A stretch of DNA of 64,000 nt, from the NCBI GenBank assembly GCA_965178125.1, contig OZ237749.1:620001-684000 (forward strand). Direction: 5' to 3'. The notes beneath the pieces are model-generated. The model saw only the letters and a list, made by a program, of their open reading frames with translations. It made no database searches and was not told the origin of the DNA. Within the stretch, counting starts at the first letter, position 1. The number at the start of each line of letters is the position of its first letter. Position numbers and translations under genes: made by a program. The DNA comes from Bilabrum cf. latius (taxonomy: Eukaryota). Shown here one piece after another: positions 6,101-61,173 of this stretch.

Positions 6101-8964
6101 AGCTTTCTCACAGGAAGCTCCGCAGCCTCGATCTTTCGTACCATGAGCTGAGGCAGCTCGCCGACTGGGCCAGCAGCCTGGCGTGCCGGACCGCCAGGCA
6201 GAAAGCAGCGTTCGAGCAGTTCCGGTCGTGGCTGCAGACCAACGGAGCCTACGACGTCATCATTGACGGGGCTAACGTTGCGTTCTGCAATTAGAACTTC
6301 AGGGGTGGCGCGTTCTCGCACGCCCAGATCGATGAGGTGGTCAGGCACTTCGAGAGCGAGGGCAGGAGGCCCCTCCTCGTCCTGCACGAGCGGTGGCTGA
6401 AGCCAGAGACGAACCTGGCGGTGCATCGCACCAAGAACTACAGGCAGAGCAGGAAAAAGGCACATTCTGAGAACAGGCAGCGTTTCGACAAGCAGCTGGA
6501 CGGAGGCGACCTGCCTGAAGCCACAGGGATCACGCTGCCCGGGCAGGGAGGACCTGCCGACTCTGCCTCGGACAGCACTCGAGCCAGCGCCCCGGCCCCC
6601 CCTGTGCTCGGCACGAAGCGCACCCGCGAGCAGCACGAGGCTGCGTCTGACGCTTCAGGGTCTGCCCCTGCAGTCGGTAGCGAACAGGCCGCCGTGCAAG
6701 GCAGCGGGGCCAGCGACTCGGCCAAGGGCGAGATGCAAGACAGCGCGGCCGTGGAATCACACAGCGACAGCGACTCGGACCACTCGGATGGTGACGATGA
6801 TGATGACGACGATGATGATGATACCGCGAGCGTTAGTCTGGAGCGGCGGCAGCAGCGGGAAATGAACAGGTGCATCCGGCGCTGGCGGAGCGTGCCCGGC
6901 CTGCTCTACGCCGTGCCCCAAGGGAACAATGATGACTGGTTCTGGCTGTATGCTGGCGTGACCCAAGGTGGTGCCACTCTCATCGAGGAGGCAGAGCACG
7001 CCGAGCGGCAGAGGCGCATGCGCCAGCACTAGGAAGAATCGACTCCATCGGTGCGGTCTGGCGGTGGTGCCGGGAATTCGGGTAGCCGACCGCACGACGC
7101 TGGCAGAACCAGTGCCTCGCTGCCTCCACCCCCTCCCGTATCGTCGGTTGGAAGCATTGCAAGCAAGCTTGCCGCTACGTCCGCTGAAGCGATGCCTTCA
7201 CCTCGCGCTGGGACAGGCATGGCCGCCCCAGGCCCGCCCAACCCGATGAGAGGGGCAGCCGATGCTCAGGTCAGATCTGCCTCAGCCGCTGCAAGGTCTT
7301 CCAAGCCAGGGAACAAGGTGGCCACACGGCCACAGCCGGTGCGCCAGCCGCAGATGGACAGTGATGTGATCCCAGCTGCAGCTGCGCCAGCTGCGAGTGC
7401 CTCCTCGGGGATCGATGCGACGGCTGGGAAGCTGGTTACCTCGGGATCAAAAGGCGCGTTTTCGTACTCCTCCTCCTCCTCGTCCTCTGCGTCCGCGTCT
7501 GCGTCGGCGACGATTGGGCAGCAGCAGCAACAGGTCCCCGCCCCTGCCATCCGCCGGCCGCCGCTGGCCCATCGCGCTTCCTCGGCGACTTCGGCAGCGG
7601 CCACAGACGGCAGCGTGGACGTCCACAAGCAGGGCCAGGAGCAGATGATGAGATCACCGGTGGCTCTGTCCGCCGGAGACAGCCCCAACATGGGGTCTGT
7701 TAGTGAGGCGAGATACGGGCACGCCGACGATGTGGCCAGGCTGGAGCTCGGTGCCGCGCCTCCAGGCAGGAGCGGAGTGGACTCTGCAGGCATAGAGGGC
7801 GGTTCCTTCGGTTCTGGTCCAGCGGGCGCGTATGGAAACGATCGACGGGCCGACACGCCGGCATCCGTCGTGTCTGGCGTGTCTCTAAACCTGCCTACAC
7901 ACTCGGCGACCCGCAGCGGCGCCAGGTCCATGGCGGCTGGCCATGGGCCTGCCAGCGTGCCTGCGGGTCCAGGTAGCGCAGCAGGCTCGATGGTCGCGAG
8001 CGTGGGCGGAGGTGGTGCCGCCCCGGGGACAGTGGGACGCGAGAGCTCTGCCGCAAGCGCTTCCGGGGCACTAGGTGACGTGGGTGCTGCCTCTGTTGAC
8101 ATATCGAGCCAGCTGGGAATGGACGCTCCGCTGCTGCCTGCAGGGTCTGGAGCACGGAGCAGCGGTAGCGGTGGTGGTGGTGGTGGTGGTGGTATGCTGC
8201 CACCTGCCGATGCGGGTCCAGGGGGAAGAATGGAGAGGCACTCAATCGATGGAGAACCCGTGGAGCATGGCAGGCATGGCGACAGCCTAAGGCGTGGGCA
8301 GTGGCTCCCTGCCCGCGGCGCACACCGGGGTCGGCAGCAGCAGCCAGGTCGGCAGGAAGCGGGCCGCAACCTCCTGCTAGGCTCTTCCGCCCCCTCGGAC
8401 TCCCATGGTGTGTCCGTTCCGGGGATGCCGGGGCGCTTGAAGGCCCCGTGGGCGGGGTCTTATTCGTCACACCAGATGAGCACAGGCATGCACCTGCAGC
8501 AGCCGTCACCCAGGAGCGCTTCCCCTAGGAGCGTGCTGTCAGCCGCGAGTGCAGGAGGGGCTTCGGACCGAGCTGCGATCGACCGGTTCCTTCCGCAGCG
8601 GGGTGGATTGGGCGCATCCGAGCACTCGGGAGGCGGCCGGACTCTGGTGGTGTCCAACGACCAGATGAGGGACCACACGTTCATGATCCTGGAGCAGAAG
8701 CTCTTTTTGCTGTGGAGAGAGAGACACCAGGTGTCGTTCCGGTTCGACGATTTCGGGCGGTCCTATGGCGGTGCTCCCAGCCGCAACCTGACGCTGACGT
8801 ACCCGAAGATTTACTCCCACAGGTCGCAGCAGTCGAGGGACGGCATGGCGTGGTTCTTTCCCATCTCCGGGACGGCGAGCCGGTGGGTGTCTGCTTGGGT
8901 GGATCCCCAGGCAGAGGAGGAGGACGTGGATCAGATTCCAGCTGGGGTGGGCGGTGGTATGTAA
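3183..8964 (+). CDS. PRORP: Protein-only RNase P (PRORP; PPR-like repeats + NYN metallonuclease), ~1875 aa, probably nuclear
   Basis: Exon 3183-3269, intron 3270-3423, then one frame to TAA 8962-8964 with 13 TAG in total. PPR-like segment (ALATMLERGVPTKLRTYLPIL). NYN motifs YDVIIDGANVAFCN[TAG]NF, LLVLHERW, PQGNNDDWFWLYA, LVVSNDQMRDH, WRERHQV. NLS-like PAAKRAR and KRRQKRK at the N-terminus. Confidence 0.9.
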
Positions 8965-9118
8965 GGCAGTGCACAGCTCAACGAGCGTAAAAGGATGCGG
9001 ACGAGCGTCGTTCGGCGAGGACTCCGGCTGTGCATTGCAGTTCCGGTTTGGGCCTTACCGTGACGCGCAACATGAAGTTGCTGAAACGTCGAGATTCTTT
9101 GGCTAGTGGACATAGAAA

Positions 9119-11660: not shown

Positions 11661-12228
11661 AGCCCTTTCCTCTTGAAGCCCTCGCCTCTTGGTGGTTATC
11701 AGAGGCGGTGACAAGCAGGCTAAGGAGCAAGCAAATGGAGTGTGCTATTATTTGCGTGTTTGATGCTTGATGTTCCAGCCGGCCCAGATGATTCGTTTGT
11801 CCAACGGACCGTCTGGATTCCGCTTGCCTACTGGGCGGTCGAGGGCTCAAGCGGGGGGTCCTTGAACGTGAAATGGGGTGTGCGCGACACATTTCATTTT
11901 TGTGGACTTATTGGGATGTTTAGAATACACGCAGGACTTGGCGCTCAGGCAATCCAACAACTTGATCACACCAGAGCGCCCAGAGCATGGCAACTGCCTG
12001 CCACACGCGAGCCTAGTCCACCAAATCTCTACCCCTAAGGCTGTCCCAACAGCCGCCCGGCAGGCTGCCCCGACCTCCGAGGCCTAGCATCCCGCGCGGA
12101 ACCGCAATCGGCTACACGCAAACGTAGACAGGTCAGGGGCAGATGCTCTTGGCAGGCCCGGAAGAGCCCGTGGGTCGATCCAATGCTAGGCTCAGCTCCG
12201 AGGCTCTCTCACTCCCACCTGCGTATGC

Positions 12229-14487: not shown

Positions 14488-14524
<37 letters not shown>

Positions 14525-18300: not shown

Positions 18301-18393
18301 CCGGACCTGCTCTCGATCCTGTCCAAAATCGATAGTGAGCTGGATCGGGCAACGACTCAGGCATCAGAGCTCTCCGCACCGAGACGTTCTTGA
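15373..18393 (+). CDS. 6TM K+ channel, SK/KCNN-like (Ca2+-activated), ~1006 aa with disordered C-tail
   Basis: Several TM helices, pore AFISFVTVGYG, S6 GRLVVLVGSVLALV and a CaM-binding-like RAALAIQEAWR. TAG 17158 joins ORFs 15373-17160 and 17185-18393 in frame; ends TGA. Confidence 0.8.
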
Positions 18394-19204: not shown

Positions 19205-22200
19205 TCAACGCGGTATCGCAAGCAGCACTGCCCCAAGTATGATCGGAGTAAATGCATGAAGGCTTAAGGCTACAAAAGGTATTGTACCTTCATTCCTAAC
19301 GTGTGGACCGCTTGTATCGTACACTGCGTCAGACGCGTTGTCGTTCTGGCCTGGAAGTGATGATGGGATGCCGCTGGTGCTCATCGATGGGCTGCTGCTG
19401 GCCGATGGGCTGGCACTGGTGCTCACCGATGGACTGGCACTGGTGCTCACCGACGAGCTGCTGCTGGTGCTCACGGACGGGCTGCTGCTGGTGCTCACCG
19501 ACGGGCTGCTGCTGGTGCTCACCGAAGGGCTGCTGCTGGCCGATGATGGGCCGGCGCTGGTGCTGGTCGATGGGCTGGCGCTGGTGCTCGCCGATGGGCT
19601 GCTGCTGGCCGATGGGCTGCCACTGGTGCTCGCCGATGGGCTGCTGCTGGCCGATGGGCTGGCACTGGTGCTCACCGATGGACTGGCACTGGTGCTCACC
19701 GACGGGCTGCTGCTGGTGCTCACCGACGGGCTGCTGCTGGTGCTCACCGACGGGCTGCTGCTGGTGCTCACCGATGGGCTGCTGCTGGCCGATGATGGGC
19801 CGGCGCTGGTGCTGGTCGATGGGCGGGCACTGGTGCTCGCCGATGGGCTGGTGCTGGCCGATGGGCTGGCACTGGTGCTCACCGATGGGCCGGCGCTGGT
19901 GCTCACCGATGGACTCGGGCTTGCAGATGGTATCGGTGTTGCTGAGGGGCATAATCCAAGGGCGACATTTATAGCACTAGTGTCTGTGCGTGCCGCTGAT
20001 GCCGCAGCCTGTAGTGTCTAGCTCCTAATTACAGGTACCTACGCCGAAAATGACAGCTTCATCTCTATTGGGATGCTGCCAGCGTCAAATGCTGACACCG
20101 ATTCCGTGAGAAACCACATGGAAAAAGTGCCGCCTGTTGCTGACCCAACTGTGTTGGCCTGCACAGCCGCCTGCAGACCGGACCCCGGGCACGCACCGGT
20201 GCCGGCATCATCGTTAAATGCCACTACGTCGCCATTGTTGAGGCTATTGCTAGGACAAGCAAGTAGCGCCCATAACACTGGGTCGGTCACCTGTCCTTGC
20301 CGCGCGGATGCCCCGCTTCCTTCAATCTCAAGGCAGGCAATCGAATCGAGCGGTTGCTGGCACGTTTCTTGTGCTGAAAGCTGCACGGCCTCCACATTGT
20401 CCCGGCATGTCGTGGCTGAAATAGAATCCAATTGCCACTGAGTAGCAGTCTTCTAGAATCGCTACGCAGCACCACCTGCTAAGCTTGCCAAGCTCGCAGC
20501 CAGCTCGGCGGAGTGAACCGCTAGCAGCATCGCAGGGTCTTCGACAACGTCCCCGACCTGCATGCTCTCCGCTGCCGAGCACCCGAACGAGCCATTCCAC
20601 ACTGCAATAAAGCCAGCAGCACCAAGGTGCTCGTTCACGCCAGTCATGTTCACTACGACTTCTCCAAACCCTTCAGGGGAGGCGCCACCGAAATATGAAG
20701 CCGACGACGTTGACCCGACGCTGAGATCCACCCAGGCTGCCAGCCTGACAGTGGCACGCACAGATGCAGCTCCCACTAACACCTCGGAGTGATTGGTCAA
20801 GACTTGCTCCTGCACGATACTCGTTGACAGGATCTCGGTGTGAACCACTGCGGCAGACTCGCCTGTAGCGGCGCTTGCGCCAGTAGATACCACAGATACT
20901 TTAGTGAATGCGTCGGCAACCTGGTCGACGGTGCGATTGGTAGCCATTGCTGCATCACTGGCATCGTTGTGTACCGCCTGCCCAATGCTAGCTCGTAGTG
21001 CCAGACGCGGTCGCAGGTCTTCCTGGCACTCACTGCCAAGGAAGAAACACCCGCACGTGCACGATCCCACCAAGCCGTCGCAAGCAGGAGCGCCTGCAGC
21101 GTTACAATTGGCAGGACAACCTGCGTGGCAATTAGTACGAGGGTATAACCCCTGCATCGATGCATTGTTCAGACCATAATCGTCAAGAAGCCCCCCTGCA
21201 GGCATGGGCACCGTTGAATTTGGCCTCAGGTGCAGGAGCAAGTCAGGGTGATTGGACGGCACACTAGTCCCACTAGCCTGGATAGTACCAGGAGTGGCAT
21301 CGCAAGTCACCGCTGACTTCATTGCCCTCGCGAGTGGCCGCAAATGCGCCGAACGGGCACCATCGATAGCTACTGCAACGGCGCCTGCAACGTGTGGCGA
21401 CGCCATGGAAGTGCCAGATAGGGACGCGTTACCTACCGACCCTGACGGCTGGTTCGGGAACGCTGCAACGATTTCGCTGCCGGGGGCTTGCAACGATACA
21501 CACTTCCCACGGTTGGAGAAGATAGACACGGCATCGTTTATTGCAGTCGAACCTACTGTGATGGGGGCTTGGCTTCCCGCAGGTGACTAGGTGCATGCAT
21601 CTGCTGCACTGTTGCCCGCAGCCACAACCGGCACTAGTCCGTACGTGTACATGGCATCTACTGCATCATCTAGCACTTGCACTCTGGAAGAGATACCAAG
21701 CGACAGGTTGATAACGCCGATGGCCTCTGCCCCTGCGTCGTCGTCGACACTTCCATCCTCATCATCGGAAGCATCAGTGCCGTTGTTAGCTGACCCAGCC
21801 GACCGCCTGGCTGGACGGATGTTTGCGATCCTCTACGCATCCTAGGCGGCAAAGTCCAGTCCATCCAGGATGTGATCGAGGGTGCCCCCACCGGTGCAGC
21901 CGAGCACCCGTATCGGCACGATGACCGAGCTAGGCGCCACCCCTAGGCGAGACCCAGCCGCGGTGCCGGCCACGTGGGTCCCGTGGCCCTCGCTCGAGCA
22001 GGACTGAAACGCCTGAAATCGTCCGTCTTCAACAGTTGGAGCCATCGTAGCGCTTGTGTAGCTTGAATATCCTCGAGCCACGCGGTGGCCTGTGGCTGGG
22101 AAAACGCGCTGCACCTCTTCCTGCGCCGCCGCAGAGAGGGCGATGTCACCGTCAGATGGGGCGAGAGCGGGATCAGCGCCTGCCACCACGGCGTCCTCAT

Positions 22201-23564
22201 ACAAATCATATGCAGATGATCCCGCGTGCAGCCTATCAAACTCCCTCAGTGATGCTTCTGTGCCGCTGTCCACCACGTAGATGGGCACGTGCGCGCCAGT
22301 GTGCAGCTACGACGTGCGCTGGTCCAGCTACCTGGTCCTAGCGTCGATTCGGTCCAAACCCCAGGACTACACATCCAATCTAGTCAGTTGAGGGGCAATA
22401 ACGGTTGTTGAGTTCGTTCCGGAAGTGGGCAATGCTTCCATCATGCGGCTGTGGTCTCTGCTGCCGGTGCCGGGCTGCACGACACCATCCGCGCCCCTCA
22501 GTCTCCTGCCATATTCCCGGTCTGTTGCTTGCACTTTCACATTTGGAACGACTGATCGCACCTCGGGCAGCTGCTGTAAGTAGCGAATGACCGGAGCAGT
22601 TGCTTCAAGCGCGAGGGCGACCACTAGCGGCAGAGTGGGCTTCCTCCTGGTTGCCACTGCAGCAGCACCACCTAGACGTCGCCGAGAAGATGTGCGATTG
22701 CCCGGCGATTCTGCCTCATCGTTTGTACTAGTACCATGCTTGAACAGATGGGAAAATGCTGGATGCTCGCCCAGGGCTGCTAGAGCTGCCCGGTCCACGT
22801 CGTGCTCCACCATAAAATACTCGCCTGCTCCCTTTGCTCCGTTGGAGCGTGCTGCGATTGCTCGCCGCGAAATGTGCGCTATGATGTGCGCACCTAAAGG
22901 GGCTTGGTTGCTTGCAACTGGTGGTGCATAGTCGGAGTTTGTCGTCGCGTCGTGGGCTCCGTTCCCAGTACTCCACGCCCGAAACTGCTGCCACTGGTCC
23001 ACTCCCTGGAATGACGAGAGCGCCCTACTTCTCGCCCTTGCAGACATTTCTGCTGAGTCGGGGCGAATACCTCCAATCACACCAGATATGTTGCAATGGA
23101 ATCCCGGCAGGGAATCATTTAGGTCTATGGCTGCGAGTTGGTGCGCAAGCCTGACGCGCATCAGTTCGTCGTCGATGAGCTGCTCGGCGACTTCGAGCTA
23201 CGATGAGACTCGCTGCGAAAAACCAGTAGATATGCACTATAATTACCATCGGAAGTGTACGCGGGCGCATGGAACAACGGGAAATTACTTCAATTTAACC
23301 AAGCACGTGCCACGCTCTTACCATCGCTCTTCTTGCCTCTGAGTGAGCATATCCCACATTGAGCCCCGTTTTTCTTTCAAACTATCTAGTTTGATATGTA
23401 TGACCGCCATGAAGTCGTGGAGGAAGCCGAATGAAAGCCAAAACAGCTGCAGTTGCACCAGAAGCATCCCCAGTCGCGGGGAATAATGCATGAGAATACT
23501 CTTTTCCAGACACAGATACAGCAGAATATAATAAGATGTGGTATAATAACGTTAATCTCCCCAT
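19205..23564 (-). CDS. Subtilisin-like serine protease (S8, proteinase K type) with signal peptide, EGF-like Cys module, Ser/Thr/Pro stalk and hydrophobic C-terminus
   Basis: Signal peptide MGRLTLLYHILLYSAVSVSG; intron 23213-23321. Motifs WGLDRID, IYVVDSG (Asp), GHGTHVAG (His), VINLSLG, VVAAGN, GTSMASPHVAG (Ser). About 12 in-frame TAG; ends TGA. Confidence 0.9.
19368..19920 (-). repeat. Coding tandem repeat (24/18-bp units, SPSVSTSS-like) with a 249-bp higher-order duplication
   Basis: The GATGATGGGCCGGCGCTGGTGCTGGTCGATGGG block recurs at 19542 and 19791; encodes the mucin-like stalk. Confidence 0.92.
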
Positions 23565-23883: not shown

Positions 23884-25398
23884 ATGAAGGCAGCACCTAC
23901 TAAGACTACTAAATTGTAGCCACTGATGCTGCTTGGGGCTGACCTGTCCGAGTATTCCCCCGGAATGCAATAGTTGCTCCTTGGCTTGCTGGCATTCGTT
24001 GCAATTAGTGCAGCAGCTCTTGCCTAGGAGTACGCCATCAAGTCGCTGAATTTCAAGCACACGATGGTGTTTACAGCTACCATACCGTTCGCAACTGCCG
24101 CCTTTGGAGCCGGTTTTGGAGGCTTGTCTGGGCGAAAGGCACCGCTTCCCCTTCACTTGCTCTGTGGTGTGCTAGGATACGCAACCTTCGAATTTAGCAA
24201 CTTGTCCCCAATCTACAACAATTATCCGACGCATACGATGTGCAAGAGCGCAAAGATCTTGCCGACCATCGCGATTGGGATGCTGGTGCTCGGCAAGCAG
24301 TACGCACCACTGGAATACCTGGCGGCTGCTCTCCTCGTGGCAGGACTCGCCGTGTTCCTGCAAGCAGACGCAGCGGCAACGCCCAACTTCGAACCGGCTG
24401 GCATCGGGATTATTGGCCTCGCCTTGCTCTGCGACGCCGTGATGTCCAACGTCCAGGAGCGCATGTTCAAGAAGCACGGGTGCTCTCAGAACGAGATGGC
24501 AGCCTACACGATGGGCACCGCCTTCGCGTGCAGCGCCATCGTCGGGATCTCGTTCGGGTCTTACATGGATGGATTCGCGGAGGCGTTCGGCTCTGCCCCA
24601 GTCTTTCTGTGCATCTTCGCGTTCGCAGTGGGCAACTACCTCACTACGCTCGTCATTTTCACCATGCTGGGACGATTCGGGGCCGCATCCACGGTGTTCA
24701 CAACGTCCGTGTGCAAGGCCGGTTCCATGGCTCTGTCCTTCCTTGTGATGCCCAAGGCGTTCACCCTCTGGCATATGGTGGGTGTGCTGCTAGTGGGGGG
24801 CGGGGTCTATGCGAATTTGGTTGCCCGAAGGGACAAGGAGAAGGAGAAGGACGGTAGTCTGCGTCCTCCCGCCGGAGTGGCGGGCAGTCCCGCAATGCTC
24901 GAGTCTGAACTCGTGAAGATGAAGATGCCTTCGGCCGCCGGCAGGGGAACGCTTCTCGGCCCCCCTGTGCAGCCAGGGCTGCCCAGCTCCAGCCCGACCA
25001 GGCGCCAGTGGAAGTCCTCGTCGGCGCCCTCGTTCGATGCCAAGGCCACTTAGTCTGGGGGCATCGGGAGCAGTGGCATTGCGGAGGATGAAGATGAAGA
25101 TGAAGATGAAGATGCAATGACCGAGGATCCCGTAGATATTCGTTCCGCTGCCACCACTGGCGCTGAAGGGCAGTAGGTCGGGAGCTCTGGTTGCTTTCAT
25201 CAGTTGGCCGACTCGGGGACGGAGAGCCCGAGGGGGTCGCTTGCAGAGCCGATTGGCTCATCGGGCGGGGCGGGGCCACCACCTGCTGGATGTCATCATT
25301 GGAGGGAGGATGGGCAAGAGGATAGAGTGGCGGAAGAAGACGAACGAGATTCGCTTAGCCACGGAATCGGCAGGGAAAGGCGAAAGGCTGCAGAATAA
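23884..25398 (+). CDS. SLC35B/UAA-family nucleotide-sugar or PAPS transporter (SLC35B3-like)
   Basis: LLGADLSEYS...LA[TAG]EYAI, NYPTHTMCKSAKILPTIAIGMLVLGKQY, ALLCDAVMSNVQERMF; about 10 TM helices. Five TAG; ends TAA. Confidence 0.85.
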
Positions 25399-33318: not shown

Positions 33319-34847
33319 ATGGGAACTAAAGATGATAGCAATCCTGCCAAATAGCAGTCTCTATATGTTACAGTCGGCATCTGCTTGATGTACGCTACAG
33401 CTTCGATCGTGATAAGCTTCAGCTACAAGGTACGCAAATCAATACATTCGAACTGTGCAATCACTGCTGCTCTCCCCACATCGTTCTGAGCAAAGGATGT
33501 GCGTTTCTACTTATCTTGCAGGCAGTTATGAGCCAGTGGGGATTCAAAGCAAGCTTTTTGATGCTTGCACTGCAAGCACTGATCGGCTTGGCATTTACAT
33601 CGTTCGCCTAGGTATCCCTTCGCACTGTTCCGGGGCTGCATGTGCCATGGTTTAGTTGGAAGGTTTATAAATAGTGAGCCCAAGATTGCGCATACCCCAC
33701 CGTAGACTTTACTCTGGTATGCGATGGTCTTTCAAGCCACTACACATTCGCCGTCAATCGCAGGTCAATAATTGTTGGGGCTCTTTTCGTTGCAAATATT
33801 GCCGTAGGTTGGGTTGGGCTACGCCTAGTCAACATCCCTATGTTCCTGTGCATTCGGCGAACGACAACGCTGTTCACCATGATTGTGCAGTTCCTGGTGA
33901 TGCGATAGATGCCCAGTGTCCCCGTGGTGGTTGCGGTGGCAATCATCGTGATTGGCACGCTCACCGCCGGATACGAGGACATGGGGGACTAGTTTATTGG
34001 CTACCTATTCACGCTGGGCAATAATGTTCTCACAGCAGCTTACCTAGTCATCTCGAGGCGCTTCAGCGACGAGACGGACACGAAAGGCTTCGGCCTAGTG
34101 TACTACACGTCCATCACGGCCCTTCCCATCTCCCTTATCTTTGCTGCTATTCGCGGTGAGTTCTAGGCGGTGATGGAGTTTGAGCACGTGCTGAACCCCG
34201 CCTTCCTGGCTTCCCTCTTGGCAGCCAGCTCCCTAGGCGTGGGCATGACCTACGTCGTCTTCCTGTCTGCCACCGTGAACTCGCCCTTGCTGACGTCGGT
34301 CACAGGGAACATGAAAGACGTAGTGAGCACGGTGTTGGGGGCGTATATCTTCGGGGACTTTGTGCCCAGCACGCTCAAGGTGGCCGGCATCGCCATCTCA
34401 TTCGTAGGGGGAGGGGTGTTCGCCGTGGCGAAGCTGTCGGAGCGGGCCGCCGAGCAGGCCAAGGCCAAGGAAGCAGAGCTGGCCAAGGTGAAAGTGGGCA
34501 TGCCGGGAGCCATGCGGCCACCTGGGAAGGATGGCGATGCCGCGGGTCGGACCACGTCTGGAGCCACTGTGCCCAGGGTAGGGGCAGGGGGGCAGGGGAG
34601 CGACAGCGCTGTTGGGAGAGGTGAGCTGCCTGTAGGGCAACGGCGAGGCTCTGATGAGGGCCAGGGGTAGGGCCAGGGGTAGAAAGGGTATGATCCGGAG
34701 GCAGGGCACAGCCAGGGTGCAGGAGATTCAGGGTCCGAAGACGGCATCGTTGATCTGACCACGGATTCAATCCCGGGACGGCGCAACCTGGTGGGCAGTG
34801 GGACTGAGGTTGGAAGCGGGTCCATATCCTAGAGGCAGGGACGGTAA
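33319..34847 (+). CDS. SLC35D/TPT-family nucleotide-sugar transporter, 3 exons
   Basis: Introns 33430-33521 and 33674-33763. Motifs LRLVNIPMFLCIRRTTTLFTM, NNVLTAAYLV, NSPLLTSVTGNMKDVVST. About nine TAG, one of them split by an intron; ends TAA 34845-34847. Confidence 0.88.
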
Positions 34848-38050: not shown

Positions 38051-38559
38051 ATGGCATTCTCTCAGCTGACTGATTCTCAGAAGGAGGACATGATCGTGTC
38101 CCTGTCCTGCCTGGTGCTGCATGGCTCCGGCAAGCCCGTGGATGCCGAGGGCATCAAGGCCATCGTGGAGGCCACCGGCCACGAGGTGGCTGGCTACTGG
38201 CCCAGCCTGATGGCGAAGTTCCTTGCCGAGAAGGACATCGACGAGCTGCTGATGAAGCCCGGTAAGTTGTGCTTAGTCAATATTCGCTTTCCTCGGCCAC
38301 CGGAACAAGTGACACATGACCTCTGTCTCTCAATGAAAACGATGCGCATACAAAGAATTCAATAATTACGTGTATCGTTGCCCTTCTGTGATTTTTGCCA
38401 TTCGTAGGTATGGGAGGTGGCCCGGCCGCTGGCGGTGCCCCGGCTGGCGGTGACGGAGCCGCAGCTGCTGCCGAGGAGGAGGAGGAGGAAGAGGAGGAGG
38501 AGGACGAATCCGTCTCTGGCGGCGGTGGTGGCCTCTTCGGTGATGAGTCCTCGTCGTGA
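38051..38559 (+). CDS. RPLP1: 60S acidic ribosomal protein P1
   Basis: LSCLVLHGSGKPVDAEGIKAIVEATGHEVAGYWPSLMAKFL, intron 38262-38407, Ala/Gly hinge, poly-E and GGGLFGD C-terminus. No TAG; ends TGA. Confidence 0.93.
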
Positions 38560-48353: not shown

Positions 48354-48481
48354 CCAATTCGGACTGGGACACACACGTATCCACGAATCTTGCGTCTCGT
48401 CACACTACTCCACGGGTGCATGGGGTGAAAAACATGCCATATTCACTGATCCTGACGCCAAAAGCAACCTTCGGACGCGAA

Positions 48482-51400
48482 TTATGTCATCAATTTTAGT
48501 AGCACTCCAGCAGGATCGCTCAGGGCTGTATCTAGAGGGAAGGGACCACGGCGGCCGGTCCACCTACTCTTCCGCTTTCCCTTCGTGTTTGGCCTACCCT
48601 TGGGAGGTTTCGGGGGGCCCATGATGCGTTTATGTGCACGTTTCAAGGTCTGGGCCACACTTGAGCTGCTACGTACACGCTGGATGGTCCAAGGATCCCG
48701 GTTGTCCGTGCTTGCCTCTTCCTTCGAGCTCTGTGCCTACGAGCCGATTTCCACCCTTGTCCACCGTTCGAGTTTGCCTCGCGATTCTTGCTTCTACGAA
48801 GCATCTTGCTTGTGACTGCTCACCTAAGTTGCTATTGTCTTCGTAACTGAGCGAGTGCTCCCTCGCTCTGACGCGAGCCGTGCTGCATTATCTTCCACCC
48901 CCCGTGCCGAAGAATGTCTCGGATCTTGGCTTGCTGTGCCCTGAGATGCAGTTGCATCGCGAGTTAGCGCAGCTCCGGCTGGAACAAAGCTGTCGCTTGG
49001 ATCGTCTGCAGGGGTATTGTCTGATTCGCTCCAGGCGCCGGCCTGGGTGCTCTCCGCAGTCGTGACCCGCTGCCTCCTCTTGGCCGCCATGCGAAGGGCC
49101 TGTGCCCTGGTTATTGTTCCCTCGCGAACAATGTGCTTGGCAGCAATTCTGGCACTCAAAGAACCCAGAGCGTGCTATGAACTCTCCCTCTGCTTCTGCC
49201 AACCCGAGCCGTCTGCATGCTCTGGCTGCACCTCACGCAGAGGTGGTGAAGCTGGACCTTTCACCGGCACATGAGTCCTCCTATGGACGATATCTCGAGC
49301 TCGAGCATGCCTTCCTGCTAGTGATCGAGCAGTCTGCGGGCGGCCCCGCATTCCCTGGCGCTATGTGACAGAAGCAGCAGAGGGTTGCAGCCGACGGACT
49401 GCATGCGAAGGTCGGGCACTCAGCGGCCGAGTTCTCCTTGGTGGGGCGCGCGGAAGCCCTCTCGGTAGCAAGGCAATTCCGTCACGCCTATGCGGCAGCA
49501 TCGGGCCGTCTGACGGCATCATCGAGGGTAGGGTGGCAGCACCAAGTGCCTATATCGGCTGCTCTGTCCTGAGGTCGCCACCAGCCTTTGCAAACGAACT
49601 GACGACCCCGCTGGTATCGGCCTATACGATGGGCTGACTGGCCTCTTCGTGTATTCCAGCAGCAGCAGCTCCACGTGTAGAGCCCAATGCATGTGCTCGC
49701 GATTCTGACGGGGTCAAGTGTCGATTTGATCGGAATGGGGCCACGGCAGACTGCGGCCTGCGCCTGCGCAGGGCCGCAGCAGTGTGCACACGCAGAGGTT
49801 CTGCCCTGTTATCGTCGCTTGTATCACCTCCATGAGGCTGGCCAGCGCGTTCTTCTGGCTGCTGCAGCGCATGCACGTGAAGATCGCAGTTCTGATGCTG
49901 CTCTGCGTGCCATGTCTAGGATGTCTTGGCAGTCAGCTTTGCACCGTTCGTGGCTGAGGCTGCAGCGAGAGCCACATCGGCCTGGATGAGCAGCACAGAC
50001 CGAAGGAATGGAACACCGCCCATCATGATCTGTACCTCCTCGATCTAACGGTATCCTGCACTGTGTCCTCGCGATAGGGTACCTGCTTCAGGTTGTTTGA
50101 GCTCTGTGGAATCGCATGGCTCGGACCCGCCCCCTTCGATCGCAAGAAGGACCTTTCCAGCATGCAGCTCCAGCTTCTACGACACGCGACGAAGGCTCAA
50201 GGTGAGGTCAGCAAGAACCACAAAGGTCTCAAATATCCTGGCAGCGCTGTCCTCCACTGCAGACTAGTGCGAGAGGCCACCGTTGGTTGAGGGGACAGAG
50301 CCAGCAAGAGCCGCGTCGATTCCTCGTGCTACCACCAAGAAGTGATCCATTGCTGCGGCTCTCTGACGCCTGAGCTCGAGGCTTTGATCGCCTGTCTCAG
50401 CATCCAGTGCTGGCACAATCTCTGCGCAGCACCGCACGTATGCATCCAGACTGGCGCGAGATAGCACGCCGACCACATCGTTGACGCCCATTCGAGGAGT
50501 CTTCTTGTTGATGGTTCGCCTGCCTAGCATCGCAAGGAGCGCGATGCAGGCCTCAGCCTCTTCCAATTGCTACTTCAGCTGCGCAATGACCATCTCTCGC
50601 CTGGTCGCCATCACATGGATGGCATTCATGTATGGCAGCAGCAAACCAGCGGTTGTTTGCGGAGGCCCCGTGTCCGGGTCGAACGGCTCCGGAACGACAA
50701 CACATCGCCCATCGCGCCCCCGCATCCAAAGCTCTGCTGCTCTCGGCAGCCTCCGCCACGCATCGTTCTTGTCGTGGTCAAAACCCATGCTGGATGCTCC
50801 TCGTCTTGCCTCAGCAGTCGGCTTGAATCCAGCGACATCCATCGTGCTCTCGTCAAGAACCACTCGCCTGTCAGACTGGCGCGCTCGCAGCCGCGGTCCT
50901 GGCCTACGCGAGGCTGGCTGTATCTATTGATCACCGCTGGAGTTCTGTACTCGGTATGACTCAACCGGAAGGCGTGGGGATCGCTGCGGTGCAGTCACTA
51001 CTCTGCCGAGCACGCCAGCCTGAGAAGGCTGCAAAACACTTGTTGCGTGACTGCTGCAAATACGTTCATACTGCGATTGTGCTCCGCGCTGCCGCTGGCC
51101 CACCTTCTCACAATCTATTCCAACATCAACGGCTGTGTGCATGCCCGTCTGGCCTACTTGGCTGCCAAAGCCAGGCGCAGTGCTCTCGGCACCAGTGCCC
51201 GAGCCCGTGCCTGTGCCGTGGACTGGTGTCGTCGTCGTCCGAGGCGAATGCGCCTCAACTGCGAGACCTGCAGGGTTCACAGTGCTCGGCAATACTGCAA
51301 TGATGGCACTGCTATCGCGCCACTCTATCGATGGATCAGCTGGAGCAGGAGCAGCTGACGTGCGGTTACGAGCCCCTGCGGCAGCCGCGGACGCCGGCCG

Positions 51401-54400: not shown

Positions 54401-54568
54401 CACGGACCCGCCTTGTGGTCGATCCGGTACCTTCTCTTGCTCAGCAGCTTGATGCAAGAATTCATCGTACAGATCCTTTGCTTCCGTATAGCTCATTGCT
54501 CCACGACGGGCATCCCTTTCCTCTACGAAATGTGCTGTGGGTAATCGAGCCTTCAACGAAGAATCCAT
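48482..54568 (-). CDS. Hypothetical protein (~2028 aa), largely disordered/coiled-coil, intronless
   Basis: Nine minus-strand ORFs (54203, 53168, 52799, 51467, 50924, 50570, 50264, 49622, 48824) share one frame and each ends in TAG. The first TAA/TGA reached is TAA at 48482. Confidence 0.7.
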
Positions 54569-54708
54569 CGGTGGTGCGCCACACCACCCAACGGATACCA
54601 ACCAACGAACACTACACGGAGCTCCTGGAAACGGAATCGAAGCCGATAGCATTCGAGCGAACTGTCATGTCCATATCATATCGAAAGCATTTGAGTGCGC
54701 CGCATCAA

Positions 54709-56316: not shown

Positions 56317-56546
56317 TATGCAGAACCGTGATCGTATACCTTGAGAAACTAGTGGAAGATTCCGATACTCCCAACTGAAAGTCCGTTGCACTACATGTTC
56401 CGCAACTCGGATCCGATCGGATTTGCGCGGCGCCGAAGTGCAACACCGTGGACGATTGTCGCGCTCAGCCGTCGCTAGCCGAGGATACCAGTGCCTGCGA
56501 GAGAATACACAGTGTTGCTAGCATTGAACTTGTCAATTCAAATAGG

Positions 56547-58604
56547 ATGGCTTCGTCAGGCTTGAGAATCCTGGATGAAGAAGATGGGGACTCGGGAAAG
56601 TCAGGCAGTTCCTACAAGATGCCTTCGATTGGAACAGCAGCTTCTAGCAAGCGCCGCGTGTCGTACTTTTATGACCCAGAGATTGGAAGTAAGATTATCT
56701 CGATAGAGTCCATAAGCTTTATGAACCACCGCGGCGACACTGCTCTTATATTACCATAAGTCTCGATTTTGCTCCTGCAGATTGGCACTATGGTCAAGGT
56801 CACCCGATGAAGGTAAGTCGTGCAAAGCTTCCGTTCTGAACTTCGTATTCGTGTGTTACACACATAAAGTTCAGCGCACTGCCTGAGTTTCCAGAACAAA
56901 TGACACGGCTGGTTCACTCGGTTGCGCCTATCGCTCAATGCCCCGCAGCCTCATCGAGTGCGTATGGCGCACCACCTGATTGTCAGCTATGACCTGTACC
57001 GCCAAATGGAAATTTATGTGAGCCGCACCTGAGAAGCTGGGACATTGTTGGAATCCGGGCTTTTCCTTCCATTCCAGGGATTGTGTTGCACCGCTCGACG
57101 AACTCGCAGAGACCGCCCCTAATCGATGCCGCTGAAATGACGAGGTTCCACTCGGACGACTACATCAATTTCTTGCGGGTGATCACACCCGATAACATGT
57201 AGGACCATCTTCGGGAATTGCAGCGATGTGAGATGCTCCGCTCGGTGCGAGCGCACCCGGCGCCCAAATGGGTGATTCCATCCCGATACGTACTCGTGGC
57301 CAAATAGTGAAACTGATCATGTTTTTCATAATGTTGTCCTTTATTGAATTGCAGTTGCTGTCGGTGAGGATTGCCCAGTTTTCGACGGGATCTTCGAGTT
57401 CAACCAGCTCGCCACGTCGGGATCGATGGGAGGAGCCGCTCTTATCAACGCGGGAAGGTGTGACGTGGCTATTAACTGGGCCGGTGGGTTCCATCACGCC
57501 AAGAAGTCCGAGGCGAGCGGGTTCTGCTACGTGAACGACATCGTGCTGGCCATCCTCGAGCTGCTCAAGGTGCACCGCCGCGTGCTGTACATCGACATCG
57601 ACATCCACCACGGGGACGGCGTGGAGGAGGCCTTCTACACCACGGACCGGGTCATGTGCGTGTCCTTCCACAAGTACGGCGATTTCTTCCCCGGCACGGG
57701 CCACTGGGAGGACATCGGGTATGCCAAGGGCCGGAACACGAGCATCAACTTTCCCCTCCACGACGGGATGAACGACGAGGCCTACCGCACCATCTTCAAG
57801 CCCATCATCGCGGAGGTCATGGCTAGGTACCAGCCCGAGGCCGTGGTGCTGGAGCTCGGGGCCGACTCCCTGGCGGGGGACAGGCTGGGCTGCTTCAACC
57901 TTTCTCTCAAGGGACACGCGGAGTGCGTCGAGTTCGTCAAGTCGTTCGGGCTGCCCACCATCCTGCTGGGCGGGGGCGGGTACACGATGCGCAACGTGGC
58001 TAGGTGCTGGACTTACGAGACAAGCGTGATGCTCGGCCGAAGCATCCCTGACGAGCTGCCGTACAACGAGTACTTTGAGTACTACGGTCCCGACTATCGC
58101 CTGCACATTGACACCACCAACATGGAGAACAAGAACGACCGCAAGTACCTCGATGACGTCACTGCCAAGCTCCTCGGCGTCCTCAAGGAGCTGGAAATCG
58201 CCCCGTCAGTGGGCTATGACACAGGAGCGGCGGGCGGGGTGTCCCACCCCAGGCCCATGGAGATGGACACGGGCGCCTAGGATGACGCGAAGGATCCAGA
58301 CGAGAGGGACATGGAGGCGGAGGACCGACGGGCGGGTGACGAGGGGGAGATGCACTCGGGGGAGAAGGACCAGGACCACGACACGGTGGTGGAGGGCAAG
58401 TCCTCCATGCCCTCGAGCCTGGCCATGCAGGATGACGATGGGGTGCAGGGAGCCGCGACTGGGGGCGCCGCTTCAGCTGCAGCCGGGGCGGCCGGGGCTG
58501 GGGCTGGGGCTGGGGCTGGGGCAGGGGCAGGCAGTGCCTCGTCGTCTTCCTCTGCCGAAGCTTCCAAGGGCGCGTCGGGGTCGGCGGCGATGGAGGACGA
58601 CTGA
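56547..58604 (+). CDS. HDAC1: Class I histone deacetylase (HDAC1/RPD3), 5 exons
   Basis: [88 protein letters not shown]. Four introns starting at 56689, 56813, 57018, 57228. TAG at 57200 and 58278; ends TGA. Confidence 0.96.
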
Positions 58605-58790: not shown

Positions 58791-60465
58791 TCAACTGGTT
58801 TTGCCAGAGTCGGGCTCTTCTATTGTTGACAGATGCTCGTCCCCGCCCTGCATGCTGCCTCCCAGCTCCGAGCCCGCCGCATCATCATGAGGCGCGCCAA
58901 AACCCTCGTGTCCGACCCCAGCCGCCCTGTCCGAATCTCTCACCGCACCGTGCGCATCCTTAGGTTCCCCATCGACAACTCCTGCCCCTTGCTCCCTGTC
59001 CAGCCGACTGGGTGGTCGCAACCTCAGGTTTTCCGGGAGCCTCGCCGCGATGTCTGCGAGCTGGCCGTCTACCAGGTGAGCGTACCGCTTGCCGCCGTAC
59101 CGATAGTACCGGGGGTCCGCCGTGGGCTGCCTGGGGGGAAGCCTGTCCGATTCTTTTCGCAGTGCCACGAGCACGCACTGGCAGCACGACGTGAGGCAGT
59201 GAAGCAGGGCGCAGATCAGAGCCACCGGGGCAAACGGATATATCGCACCGGCGATGGAACGCTGGAACGGCGCCGCGCAACCTGGCCTTCGAGCATCCGC
59301 GGCGAGGCAGGTCGCTGAGACAGGGAACAAGTAGGGGCAGCCGCCGTGCCCCTGCAGAGGCCGGAGTGCCGCCAGCCCCTCCGCCGTGAAGTTGCCACTG
59401 CCTGCACCGGGCCCGCCGTTCCCCTGCAAGGCGCTCTGGTCTGGGATCGGATCAAAGGCCTCGTGCGACCGGTAGCTGCCGTCCTCAGACACGAGGCAGA
59501 ACTGCGAAGGGGCGAACCATCCACCGTAGTGCGCCCTCGCACACCGCTGCATGGCCTCGACCGCCGGCAGGTCCGACCGGAGGAGGCTGTCCCCATCGAG
59601 ATCGTGCTTCCACCACGCGTCCACTGGGCTGATTACGTCACCGGGGGAGACCTGGGCGCTGGTGTTACTTGCTGCTCCTGCTCCTGCAGTGCCGCCGCTG
59701 CTCCCCCAGAACAGGTCGGGCCTGTCCTCCACGAGGACCGCGGTTTCCTCTGGTCTCTCAGTCAGGTTGAAGTAGAAGTCACCGGGGCTGCATCGAAGGG
59801 GCGCGCCCCACCCGCAGCACGAGTGCTCCTCTTCGATGGAGAGGAGCCTGCGCCTGTAGGTCTCGATGCCTGCAGCAGCGCCGTGGTGGTAGTACAGCCA
59901 GAGTCTCAGCATGCGAGAGGTTTGCAGGCTCGCCAACTGGCGCTGGCATTTCGGGGAGTCGATGCTGCTTTCATCGCCCCGCAGGAAACACGCATCGGAG
60001 GCCGCCATCGACTCGGAGCCGCCAGCGTCAGGGATCAGCCCAGGCCCTTGCCCCGCCGTTGCCGCAACCGTCGCGCCAATCACACCGAGCACGGCAGCGA
60101 CGCAAACTTGCATGCTGCAAAAAATAAGTAGTGCAAATTTGTTGTGCTAGCTCACGGCTGCCGAACCGCATGCAGCGATCGGCAACTGAGTCCATCCGGC
60201 ACAGCACAGACCGGCGCTCCACAGCTTGGAAACGTTGCCAAAAGCTGTGAGATAGTCCGAATCCAGGAGAAGACGGAGCGCAACCCCGAAATATAAAATC
60301 CAGTTGATCTGCGGCTCATTCGGCTAAGGGTAGCCCGGTACTAGCTCATCATGGACACGCAACGCTCATGATACAGCTGCATTGATGACCTTGTAGCCAA
60401 TCTCTCACGCCGTGAAACAGCTGCATTCCAAGCAGGCTGCGCAAAGAGGCAGTCCTGTTGCACAT
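58791..60465 (-). CDS. Tetraspanin-like 4-TM protein with enlarged extracellular loop
   Basis: Exon 60465-60409, intron 60309-60408, three N-terminal hydrophobic segments (…ACGSAAVS[TAG]HNKFALLIF…), CCG motif (HSCCGWG), further Cys, then TM4; ends TGA. Confidence 0.6.
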
Positions 60466-60966
60466 CAAGTTGATTCATGTAGAAATCACTATCATTTTGA
60501 CTCGTCGTGCGAGCGGGCGGCGAGCGGAGCACTTTCTCGCTCCGGACGGGTTCTGTATTATTCATCAACTTGAAGTACTCGCAATAAAAAAACAAACGGC
60601 TGGAAACGGAACCAACCAAGGCAACGGAACCTCACACCAATCGCGATCGAATCTTCAGAAGTGAGCACACATGTGCTAACTATTTTGTTGTGGCTGTTGA
60701 TGTGCGGCACGCCCGTACATGATTGGGTAATACACTGCTGATAAACAGTCTTGTTTGCACCGGATCGATTGGATTCGCCGAAGCAAGGCAACACAAATCC
60801 AGCCACACAGTTGACCAATACGGATATTGTTTGTTGTTATTGTCTTGTTATGACCATGCGAAACTCTTTCTGTTCGCGTGATTTCTTTGCTACCTATTCA
60901 TTCGGAAGCATTGATTCGAACACTTGGCCGCCGACCGATTCTTGTTCATCTGCGCAGGGACATACT

Positions 60967-61173
60967 ATGGACTCTGCTTACTTCGCTGGAATCGCTGCTG
61001 TTGCATCTGCCTTCCTATGGGTGAACGCACCGTGCCGCTGCTCCGCGCAAGCGTGTGACATACGCTGCACATGCAAGGATACCAAGTGTGAAGGCTGCCC
61101 GTGCTGCGCGGACTGTGATGGTAAATGCGGGTGCACGCAGAGTGGCTGCGGGTGCAAGGGGAACAAGAAATAA
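60967..61173 (+). CDS. Metallothionein-like Cys-rich small protein with hydrophobic N-terminus, 68 aa
   Basis: 14 Cys in the last ~46 aa arranged as CxC, CC and CxxC, with no aromatics in that part. Probable 5'-UTR intron 60661-60957; ends TAA. Confidence 0.65.
   Translation: MDSAYFAGIAAVASAFLWVNAPCRCSAQACDIRCTCKDTKCEGCPCCADCDGKCGCTQSGCGCKGNKK

Follow-up and report, generated by a model that had tools for sequence, protein, structure and literature searches.

A protist nuclear sequence in which TAG is a sense codon, probably for glutamine, and TAA and TGA end genes

Gene Content of the Window

The window, the whole 64,000-nucleotide stretch of DNA that was analyzed, is eukaryotic nuclear DNA of a protist. 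Its GC content is about 60% and its genes have introns. The gene content identified through Pfam is that of a eukaryotic nucleus and includes PRORP, HDAC, a subtilase, two nucleotide-sugar transporters, ion channels, a sulfatase, and ribosomal proteins. A phage or bacterial origin was considered and is ruled out by the introns, HDAC, PRORP, and the ribosomal P protein. A repeat is present at 47086-47198. The features discussed here are as follows.

3514-8964, plus strand: PRORP-like gene, TAA stop at 8962..8964
6292..6294, plus strand: TAG in frame within the nuclease domain of PRORP, opposite Q in both solved homologues, A. thaliana PRORP2 and PRORP1
19205..23161, minus strand: subtilase gene with 10 in-frame TAGs and a TGA end (Pfam Peptidase_S8, 5.7e-24)
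23884-25398, plus strand: UAA-family nucleotide-sugar transporter gene, TAA stop at 25396..25398 (Pfam UAA, 4.1e-32)
23971-23973 and 24025-24027, plus strand: two TAGs in the UAA transporter, both Q in the 68% identical protein P0121
33678/33840-34847, plus strand: TPT-family transporter gene, TAA stop at 34845..34847
33906, 33990, and 34164 (33906..34166), plus strand: three TAGs in the TPT domain, Q, E, and Q in the related contig L001 (79% identity)
38051..38559, plus strand: acidic ribosomal protein P gene in two exons, with 0 TAGs and a TGA stop at 38557-38559 (Pfam Ribosomal_60s)
48482-54652, minus strand: 2056-aa ORF, less certain, without a Pfam family, TAA stop at 48482..48484
57200..57202, plus strand: in-frame TAG in the upstream HDAC exon; the column in 108 homologues holds Q (41), H (21), and S (19)
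57348..58604, plus strand: main HDAC exon with one TAG in the C-terminal tail and a TGA end (Pfam Hist_deacetyl, 6.7e-69)
60745-61173, plus strand: small Cys-rich ORF, a predicted gene without a Pfam match, TAA stop at 61171..61173

No tRNA genes were found in the window by ARAGORN or Rfam, and a Pfam scan of 28 window ORFs revealed no eRF1 domain. The initial annotation had likewise placed both genes outside the window.

Stop Triplets and Gene Ends

Seventeen long ORFs, delimited by TAA and TGA, contain 14,379 codons. They hold 96 in-frame TAGs and no in-frame TAA or TGA. The zero for TAA is partly circular because the ORFs were delimited by TAA and TGA. Therefore, two non-circular tests were run, one on ORF lengths and one on coding-flank counts. 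The statement that internal in-frame TAA is absent although CAA is commonly used was borne out, since the same ORFs contain 139 CAA codons. With 488 CAG codons also present, UAG accounts for about 13% of the Gln codons and for 6.7 in every 1000 codons overall. About 27 in-frame TAAs would be expected, against the 0 found, if the TAA:CAA ratio equalled TAG:CAG. In the two other frames of these ORFs, TAA occurs 26 and 44 times. TAG occurs 128 and 125 times there, so it is not avoided in frame.

UGA ends genes in the window, the ribosomal protein P gene among them, where the coding score falls from 29.3 bits ahead of the TGA to -7.2 past it. The TGA gene ends are as follows.

Plus strand, well supported: 11658, 15025, 18391, 33205, 38557, 42520, 46669, and 58602
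Minus strand, well supported: 253, 1049, 12229, 19205, 36380, 46746, 54709, and 58791
Plus strand, doubtful: 28579 and 36243

The 16 well-supported genes and the two doubtful ones are compatible with the 17 TGA-ending genes counted in the initial annotation. UAA is not a sense codon here, and it also ends genes. The five TAA stops that had been named (8962, 25396, 34845, 48482, and 61171) were each found to be a TAA triplet closing a long ORF. As a terminator, UGA is about threefold more frequent than UAA (16-18 versus 5).

The TAA of PRORP coincides with the C-terminus of its homologues. In an alignment to A. thaliana PRORP2, 30 residues stand before the TAA and 29 are left in the solved chain, and the coding score falls from 15.7 bits upstream of the TAA to -4.3 downstream of it. 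For the TPT transporter, the scores around the TAA at 34845 are 8.0 upstream and -3.6 downstream. The score past the TAA of the UAA transporter at 25396 is negative, and the final 73 codons before it are weakly coding. The gene models behind the TAA stops at 48482 and 61171 are weak. The final ~350 codons of the ORF ending at 48482 score low, with -0.7 for the 84 codons past its last TAG, and the ORF ending at 61171 is absent from the set of ORFs with a coding score of at least 14.

Coding Signal across TAG

The effect of each triplet on ORF length was determined for ORFs of at least 300 aa. The standard code yields 21 of these (24,882 nt, maximum 644 aa), and reading TAA as sense yields 22 (26,370 nt, maximum 677 aa). 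With TAG as sense there are 46 (77,656 nt, maximum 2061 aa). Reading TGA as sense gives 63, with a maximum of 1073 aa, and this growth is expected for the commonest stop triplet. Since TGA readthrough also inflates ORFs, ORF length alone is not the argument.

The coding-flank test counted stop triplets that have 50 in-frame codons of coding-like codon usage on both sides. These flanks were found for 70 of 1027 TAGs, 2 of 436 TAAs, and 13 of 1646 TGAs (TAG versus TAA, Fisher p = 3e-9). Both of the TAAs are antisense to known genes. None of the 13 TGAs lies inside a known gene frame, and the one at 36380 on the minus strand is the terminal stop of its own gene. Twenty-seven of the 70 TAGs are outside the 17 gene frames, mostly antisense.

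The codon-usage coding score, from a model trained on the same ORFs that were scored, is positive across TAGs and drops past the TAA or TGA stop in most genes. In 10 of the 15 TAG-bearing ORFs, the stretch beyond the final TAG has a score of 14 bits or more, and in the main HDAC exon the 107 codons past the TAG score +56 bits. The positions of TAG along the ORFs match the distribution of CAG and CAA (KS p = 0.20; against a uniform distribution, p = 0.10), and TAG is not depleted toward the ends. The split between TAG as a sense codon and TAA and TGA as stops is therefore confirmed in the window.

An end-like test, which sought coding sequence upstream and non-coding sequence downstream, was also tried. 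It did not separate the triplets (TAG 46/1027, TAA 17/436, TGA 77/1646) and was dropped because off-frame noise dominates.

Amino Acid at TAG

TAG is found in frame inside conserved genes, including the Pfam-matched domains of PRORP, the subtilase, TPT, and HDAC. Over 14 aligned sites, Q alone has positive summed log-odds (+15.1 bits), compared with -3.3 for S, -5.2 for T, -10.6 for K, -13.3 for E, and -34.9 for L. In the closest homologue (68-94% identity), Q is present at four of six TAG sites. Thus, TAG most likely encodes glutamine. A code with UAG as Leu, as in the rhizarian exLh or a table 16-like code, does not fit the alignments, in which Leu has the value of -34.9 bits. Pyrrolysine and selenocysteine were rejected, since TAG is used too often for either and lies opposite Q in the alignments.

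The individual columns are mixed. Several of them disagree with Gln and many have rare Q. For the HDAC column, a residue is present in 106 of the 108 homologues, and human HDAC1/2 have S. The second and third TPT sites are Q and A in the database protein P0246 (71% identity). Across 150 distant homologues of TPT, K is found in 76 at codon 23, D is found in 86 at codon 51, and the remaining site is mixed. Six TAG columns of the subtilase across 120 aligned homologues gave no clear residue. The column of codon 278 has P in 103 of the 118 homologues with a residue, and that of codon 285 has Y in 61. The TAG site of the D-serine dehydratase is opposite D or A and is uninformative.

Decoding of UAG and Alternative Readings

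It is likely that the window follows a nuclear code of the NCBI table 15 type, in which UAG is Gln, UAA and UGA are terminators, and a tRNA-Gln(CUA) and a changed eRF1 are predicted. The initial annotation had put forward both components, which is reasonable, and the same proposal was made by Panek et al. (2017; PMC5304391) for their case. A tRNA-Gln with the anticodon CUA would read UAG. A duplicated tRNA-Gln(CUG) with a single change in its anticodon would be its probable source. A CUA anticodon would be unable to pair with UAA, and for this reason only UAG would have changed. In eRF1, the recognition of a third-position G may have been lost or weakened, with UAA and UGA kept. The eRF1 of Iotanema has T32G and that of exLh has L69A, each at a residue in contact with this guanine.

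It is unlikely that UAG, although sense, also ends some genes from time to time. Five of the 15 TAG-bearing ORFs (19205 and 48482 on the minus strand; 23884, 33840, and 39625 on the plus strand) have only 4-270 codons past the last TAG with coding scores of -1.8 to +2.6. Because these stretches are very short or neutral in score, the genes could end at that last TAG. Three ORFs have a TAG 5-13 codons before the TAA or TGA, which is not unusual, as about 1.4 such TAGs would be expected at 16 ends. The lack of TAG depletion at the ORF ends (the KS results above) also counts against this reading, and highly expressed genes end in TGA. The subtilase, one of the five, has a Ser/Pro/Thr stalk and a hydrophobic C-terminal segment past its last TAG, and its tail therefore looks translated. 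A TrpB-like ORF meets a TAG (35946) before any TAA or TGA. It has neither near its expected C-terminus, and its first TGA is at 36243. However, this ORF is frameshifted by an extra G in a homopolymer at 35291-35297, perhaps as a pseudogene or through faulty assembly. That frameshift could suggest that the in-frame TAGs escape decoding altogether and represent pseudogenes, assembly errors, unspliced introns, or U-to-C edited mRNA. This is extremely improbable. Errors or decay would strike all three stops, and 96 TAGs were found against 0 TAAs and 0 TGAs. The coding signal also runs on across the TAGs. Related contigs have their TAGs elsewhere, and TAGs of the window lie opposite Q in relatives. 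If a first-position U were edited, TAA and TGA should be rescued too, and the restriction to UAG would fit a CUA anticodon better.

The residue and the tRNA can each be questioned as well. Another residue at UAG (Glu, Ser, Leu, or Lys, which are known from further UAG reassignments), or ambiguous decoding, is very unlikely. P, Y, K, and D dominate several columns, the closest relatives have A at two TAG sites and E at one, and one TAG of L001 is opposite E in the window. Against this stand the summed log-odds, positive for Q only, the four Q sites in the closest homologue, and the PRORP site, which is Q in both plant enzymes. UAG could also be read as Gln with no dedicated tRNA(CUA). Once eRF1 no longer competes, a near-cognate tRNA-Gln(CUG) or a tRNA of altered structure could decode it. 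The literature describes tRNA-Gln as a known near-cognate readthrough tRNA for UAG and UAA in standard-code organisms, and it gives a precedent in the tRNA-Trp(CCA) of Blastocrithidia, which reads UGA with a 4-bp anticodon stem. This route is improbable here. A frequency of 6.7 per 1000 codons across essential genes needs efficient decoding, and the strict exclusion of UAA is simplest with C at anticodon position 34. The known organisms with UAG or UAR as Gln for which genomes are available carry tRNA-Gln(CUA) (PMC5304391).

Comparison with Known Codes

The window does not have a table 6 type code, in which UAA and UAG are both Gln. These codes are found in many ciliates, hexamitin diplomonads, some Ulvophyceae, Streblomastix, and Amoeboaphelidium, and tRNA-Gln(CUA) is documented in several such organisms (PMC5304391). 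They share UAG as Gln with the window but also read UAA as Gln, whereas TAA was found in 0 of 14,379 codons and was coding-flanked in 2 of 436 cases. Codes in which all three stops are also sense (Condylostoma, Blastocrithidia, and Amoebophrya ex Karlodinium) do not apply either. In-frame TGA and TAA are both 0 and the coding-flank test was negative for both.

The initial annotation held that most nuclear recodings change UAA and UAG together. This agrees with Panek et al. (2017; PMC5304391), who count at least 13 coordinated cases. It also took the uncoupling of UAA and UAG to be close to unprecedented, which was an overstatement, as such codes have been in print since 2017 and have an NCBI table (15). 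UAG-to-Gln with UAA and UGA as stops is an already known code type, used by Iotanema, Protocruzia, and some phyllopharyngean ciliates, here in a seemingly different lineage. The UAG-only cases of 2017 were Iotanema spirale (Gln) and the rhizarian exLh (Leu; PMC5304391). Later ones (PMC11687900) are Scotinosphaera (Ser), Protocruzia, Hartmannula, and Trochilia (Gln), and TARA ciliate MAGs (Leu). PMC6733595 deals with plastid codes only.

Iotanema spirale (Metamonada, Fornicata) is like the window in that UAG alone has become Gln, UAA and UGA are stops, and a tRNA-Gln(CUA) and an eRF1 change were predicted (PMC5304391). It differs in being an anaerobic metamonad whose data are those of a transcriptome and whose primary stop is UAA, while UGA is the main stop in the window. 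The window also has a GC content of about 60%, introns, and an HDAC that falls with stramenopile-type sequences and has no named relative close to it.

Ciliate macronuclear genomes are AT-rich and have very short introns, unlike the window. The codon table of Protocruzia tuzeti, Hartmannula sinica, and Trochilia petrani is identical to that of the window (table 15), as given by McGowan et al. (2024; PMC11687900). There, too, TAG is spread along the gene bodies as other Gln codons are. The same paper reports that 93.5-100% of the mapped C-termini in these ciliates end in UAA, whereas TGA dominates in the window. The rhizarian exLh and the TARA ciliate MAGs (Leu), Scotinosphaera (Ser), and the ciliate PL0344 (UAG as Glu, UAA as Lys) are decoupled like the window but use other residues. 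The crAss-like and Lak phages with code 15 have TAG as Gln, as in the window. However, their suppressor tRNAs act against bacterial RF1 and RF2, and the window is eukaryotic nuclear DNA with a single eRF1.

Few nuclear codes give UAG and UAA different meanings, and the sources consulted name about eight lineages or groups. As one eukaryotic release factor recognizes all three stops, each of them is a natural experiment. They show how eRF1 can go blind to one third-position purine and how a CUA anticodon comes to be accepted by Gln-tRNA synthetase. Both points are of direct use for the engineering of eukaryotic amber suppression.

Relatives and Lineage

Two metagenomic relatives, L001 and L002, share the TAG-sense pattern. 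Their TPT proteins are 79% and 57% identical, respectively, to that of the window. L001 has two in-frame TAGs, and the TAG positions differ between the window and the related contigs. For L002, the summed length of ORFs with 150 aa or more is 3192 aa when the standard code is applied, 7636 aa when TAG is sense, and 3841 aa when TAA is sense. Eight ORFs were found there, with 0-6 in-frame TAGs each, and they end in TGA (6) or TAA (2). No tRNA genes were found in the related contigs L001-L007, and when the UAA transporter was used for an initial metagenome scan, no relatives were recovered.

The HDAC of the window clusters with stramenopile-type sequences. In the HDAC tree, it pairs with an ENA protein (support 99/99). 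The enclosing group, whose internal order the tree leaves unresolved, includes diatom, brown-alga, Aplanochytrium, and bicosoecid records and records labelled 'Symbiodinium'. The literature searches for a published non-ciliate, GC-rich lineage with UAG as Gln gave only the cases cited here, which is not proof of absence.

The UAG-to-Gln/UAA-stop code may have had an independent and undescribed origin in a GC-rich, intron-bearing, non-ciliate, non-metamonad, and possibly stramenopile-like protist clade with at least three divergent members (the window, L001, and L002), and we consider the case for this to be evenly balanced. If it is true, the genomic DNA would allow the predicted tRNA-Gln(CUA) and the eRF1 change to be read directly. 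It would also provide a case in which UGA, not UAA, is the main remaining stop.

Gene calls made in databases with the standard code break proteins at TAG, as in P0122, P0258, and P0002, which come from the organism itself and from a relative. Since standard-code gene callers cut proteins at every TAG, the annotation and phylogenomics of this genome and its metagenomic relatives must use table 15. The fragment P0002, from a relative and 93% identical, stops exactly before the TAG at codon 440 of the subtilase.

Stop codons and sense TAG

In the window, TAG is a sense codon and TAA and TGA are stops. Stop-to-stop ORFs reach at most 644 aa with all three standard stops, and when TAG is read through there are ORFs of 2061, 1897, 1542, 1346 and 1215 aa. 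In 17 ORFs (14,379 codons), 96 TAG and no TAA or TGA were found in frame. In the two other frames of the same ORFs there are 26 and 44 TAA, 128 and 125 TAG, and 210 and 302 TGA. Thus, TAG is equally common in frame and out of frame, and TAA and TGA are excluded in frame. Codon use in these ORFs is CAG 488, CAA 139 and TAG 96. A TAA:CAA ratio equal to the TAG:CAG ratio would predict about 27 in-frame TAA, and none was observed. The initial annotation had proposed from 22 delimited genes that UAG is uncoupled from UAA, with no internal in-frame TAA despite the use of CAA, and these counts confirm it.

Because the ORFs are themselves delimited by TAA and TGA, tests that do not depend on this definition were added. 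The standard code gives 21 ORFs of at least 300 aa (maximum 644 aa). Reading TAA as sense gives 22 (677 aa), TAG as sense 46 (2061 aa) and TGA as sense 63 (1073 aa). TGA outnumbers the other stop triplets (808 + 847 copies, against 530 + 503 for TAG), so many long ORFs are expected when it is read as sense, and ORF length alone is not the argument. Flanks were therefore scored by codon-usage log-odds, with a model trained on the same ORFs, and called coding-like at 6 bits or more in frame over 50 codons on each side. Both flanks are coding-like for 70 of 1027 TAG, 2 of 436 TAA and 13 of 1646 TGA (Fisher, TAG versus TAA p = 3e-9, TAG versus TGA p = 4e-18). The two TAA are both on the strand opposite known genes. 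No known gene has any of the 13 TGA inside its frame, and one of them is the terminal stop of the minus-strand gene bounded at 36380. Of the 70 TAG, 43 are read in frame in the 17 ORFs and 27 are outside these gene frames, mostly antisense, where TAG corresponds to the Leu codon CTA.

Genes of the window assigned to eukaryotic families through Pfam
253-912, minus strand, mitochondrial-type ribosomal protein S5
3514-8964, plus strand, protein-only RNase P (PRORP) with PPR region
about 9000-11660, plus strand, arylsulfatase
13447-15027, plus strand, D-serine dehydratase-like
15373-18393, plus strand, potassium-channel-like protein
19205-23161, minus strand, subtilase
23884-25398, plus strand, UAA-family sugar-nucleotide transporter
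28696-33207, plus strand, LRR/coiled-coil protein
33840-34847, plus strand, TPT-family sugar-nucleotide transporter
38051-38559, plus strand, acidic ribosomal protein P
46746-48440, minus strand, alpha/beta hydrolase
54709-56400, minus strand, EF-hand protein
exons from about 56400 to 58604, plus strand, class I histone deacetylase (HDAC)
62479 onward, cyclic-nucleotide-gated-like channel

Five TAA triplets (8962, 25396, 34845, 48482 and 61171) each end a long ORF, as had been annotated. The 17 TGA-ended genes counted at that stage are compatible with the 16 well-supported and two doubtful ones found here. In most genes the coding score is positive until the TAA or TGA and negative beyond. In PRORP, the alignment to A. 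thaliana PRORP2 stops 30 residues before the TAA, and 29 residues of the solved PRORP2 chain follow the aligned part. In the ribosomal P gene the coding signal is 29 bits before the TGA and -7 after. Two TAA stops are weaker: the final ~350 codons of the 2056-aa ORF that ends at 48482 score low, and the stop at 61171 ends a Cys-rich ORF without a family match.

TAG may additionally be a minor terminator. In five ORFs (bounded at 19205 and 48482 on the minus strand and at 23884, 33840 and 39625 on the plus strand) the stretch past the last TAG is too short or too neutral in score to tell, and a tryptophan synthase beta (TrpB)-like ORF has neither TAA nor TGA near its expected C-terminus. Past the last TAG, the coding signal is 14 bits or more in 10 of the 15 TAG-bearing ORFs, and the spread of TAG along ORFs matches that of CAG/CAA (KS p = 0.20), with no thinning towards ORF ends. 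The TrpB-like ORF (35003-36245, plus strand) runs ~150 codons past the conserved end without TAA or TGA. It is split into two frames where a G run (35291-35297) within a conserved stretch is one G too long, and its motif reads CGCEDKD where an SGRGDKD-like motif is usual. Given the one-base frameshift, the ORF may represent a pseudogene, an assembly error in the homopolymer or a gene with an unrecognised intron.

TAG resembles a minor codon avoided by highly expressed genes. In four of the 17 ORFs GC3 is 0.75 or higher: EF-hand (0.85), HDAC (0.84), 58791-60113 (0.75) and the incomplete 62479-63999 (0.75). The first three have 0-1 TAG each and the last has 2. The ribosomal P exons have none, and lower-GC3 genes have 4-18 TAG per 1000 codons.

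Amino acid at TAG

Alignments indicate Gln as the amino acid at TAG, an assignment that is well supported, if not proven. Summed over 14 TAG sites, Gln is the sole residue with positive log-odds (+15.1 bits), followed by Ser (-3.3), Thr (-5.2), Arg (-7.7), Lys (-10.6), Glu (-13.3) and Leu (-34.9 bits). At the six sites with a homologue of at least 68% identity, the closest one has Q, Q, Q, E, Q and A. Opposite the TAG in the nuclease domain of PRORP, both plant enzymes of solved structure have Q, and a 68%-identical database protein has Q at both TAGs that its alignment to the UAA transporter covers. The TAG column of an upstream HDAC exon contains Q 41, H 21 and S 19 among 108 homologues, with S in human HDAC1/2. 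The three TAGs of the TPT transporter are Q, E and Q in the closest relative, the metagenome locus L001 (79%), and a homologue of 71% identity (P0246), which covers two of the sites, has Q at the second and A at the third. Among 150 more distant homologues, K prevails at the first site (76) and D at the second (86), and the third is mixed. At the six subtilase sites the alignment is uninformative or favours residues other than Q (P in 103 and Y in 61 of the 118 homologues that have a residue at the site; A at one of the six in a 94%-identical fragment), and in D-serine dehydratase the aligned residue is D or A.

The same code in relatives

Standard-code database gene calls truncate this organism's own proteins at TAG (entries P0122 and P0258). 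The subtilase of a 93-94%-identical relative (P0002) is cut exactly before a TAG shared with the window. JGI metagenome contigs, scanned with a TPT alignment, gave seven loci, in which no tRNA genes were found. Two in-frame TAGs are present in L001 (79% identity, 53% GC). L002 (57% identity, 54% GC, 11.8 kb, 1-11785) has the same pattern as the window: the summed length of its ORFs of 150 aa or more is 3192 aa with the standard code, 7636 aa when TAG is sense and 3841 aa when TAA is sense. Its eight ORFs end in TGA (6) or TAA (2) and have 0-6 in-frame TAGs each; five have Pfam matches (SDR, Ras as a Rab-like GTPase, RecX, EF-hand and TPT). The other five loci (69-75% GC) have long ORFs already under the standard code. 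The presence of the pattern in contigs of relatives indicates a code common to a group of organisms and not to one genome. Among named records, those that match the HDAC best (65-71%) are from stramenopiles or labelled 'Symbiodinium', and in an HDAC tree the window pairs with an ENA protein within an unresolved group.

Known codes and decoding

The codon table of the window is NCBI table 15 (TAG = Gln, TAA and TGA stop). UAA and UAG are usually reassigned together, as the initial annotation had stated (excerpts of Panek et al., 2017, PMC5304391). The novelty is lower than it had supposed, since UAG-only reassignments have been documented since 2017, in Iotanema (Gln) and rhizarian exLh (Leu) in the same excerpts. 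Later cases, in excerpts of McGowan et al. (2024, PMC11687900), are Scotinosphaera (Ser), Protocruzia, Hartmannula and Trochilia (Gln), and TARA ciliate MAGs (Leu). Compared with the cases as described in these excerpts, the window differs in its main stop, TGA, and in genome style. No report of table 15 in a comparable GC-rich non-ciliate lineage was found in the literature searched. There is a fair chance that the code originated independently in an undescribed clade.

Reading UAG but not UAA needs a tRNA with C34, that is, anticodon CUA, and tRNA-Gln(CUG) is one mutation from it. The release factor eRF1 recognises all three stops. The codon table is observed here, and for the decoding machinery we infer from established knowledge that UAG would be decoded by a tRNA-Gln with anticodon CUA, one mutation from tRNA-Gln(CUG). 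The N-domain of eRF1 would probably be altered, as is usual where stops are reassigned (T32G in Iotanema, L69A in rhizarian exLh; excerpts of PMC5304391). The initial annotation, which had called for such a tRNA and a modified eRF1, was right on the code, and the machinery that it named is a prediction. Its statement that no tRNA-Gln(CUA) gene lies in the window agrees with the ARAGORN search, which found no tRNA genes in the 64 kb. First-position U-to-C editing is disfavoured, since it should rescue TAA and TGA too and the change is limited to TAG.

Genome and gene features

The window belongs to the compact, GC-rich nuclear genome of a protist and has 56-65% GC in 4-kb intervals along the 64 kb. 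No Rfam families were found in it at the gathering threshold. Introns interrupt the HDAC, sulfatase, EF-hand and ribosomal P protein genes. Between consecutive minus-strand genes (46746-48629, 48482-54652 and 54709-55599) the gaps from stop to next first ATG are only ~41 and 57 nt, and convergent neighbours are 75 nt (46671/46746) and 187 nt (58604/58791) apart. Either the genome is very compact or start codons are mis-set.

Several genes contain repeats. A long (GA)n-type microsatellite (47086-47198) encodes ~40 Gly-Ala dipeptides within the alpha/beta hydrolase ORF, and the HDAC tail (~58500) and the end of the LRR/coiled-coil protein (~33100) have shorter GAGAGA peptide runs. The minus-strand ORF 36380-37897 has four near-identical tandem repeats of ~60 residues (AAERARLQSLETSRWMGLGVAGGYLGAGAAGRSNVCGGGEAQQQQQQ...) and no Pfam match. 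The subtilase has a C-terminal stalk of ~230 residues of PSVSTS/PSASTS repeats (19300-20000, minus strand), then a hydrophobic segment, and looks like a membrane-anchored, mucin-like protease. Between the two domains of the D-serine dehydratase-like gene there is a low-complexity stretch of ~155 residues (14130-14590, plus strand), in frame and extra compared with the chicken enzyme, which is Ser/Ala/Gly-rich, contains one TAG and may be either an insertion or a stop-free unspliced intron. A small ORF (60970-61173, plus strand) has a Cys-rich, metallothionein-like tail (CRCSAQACDIRCTCKDTKCEGCPCCADCDGKCGCTQSGCGCKGNKK) and no Pfam match.
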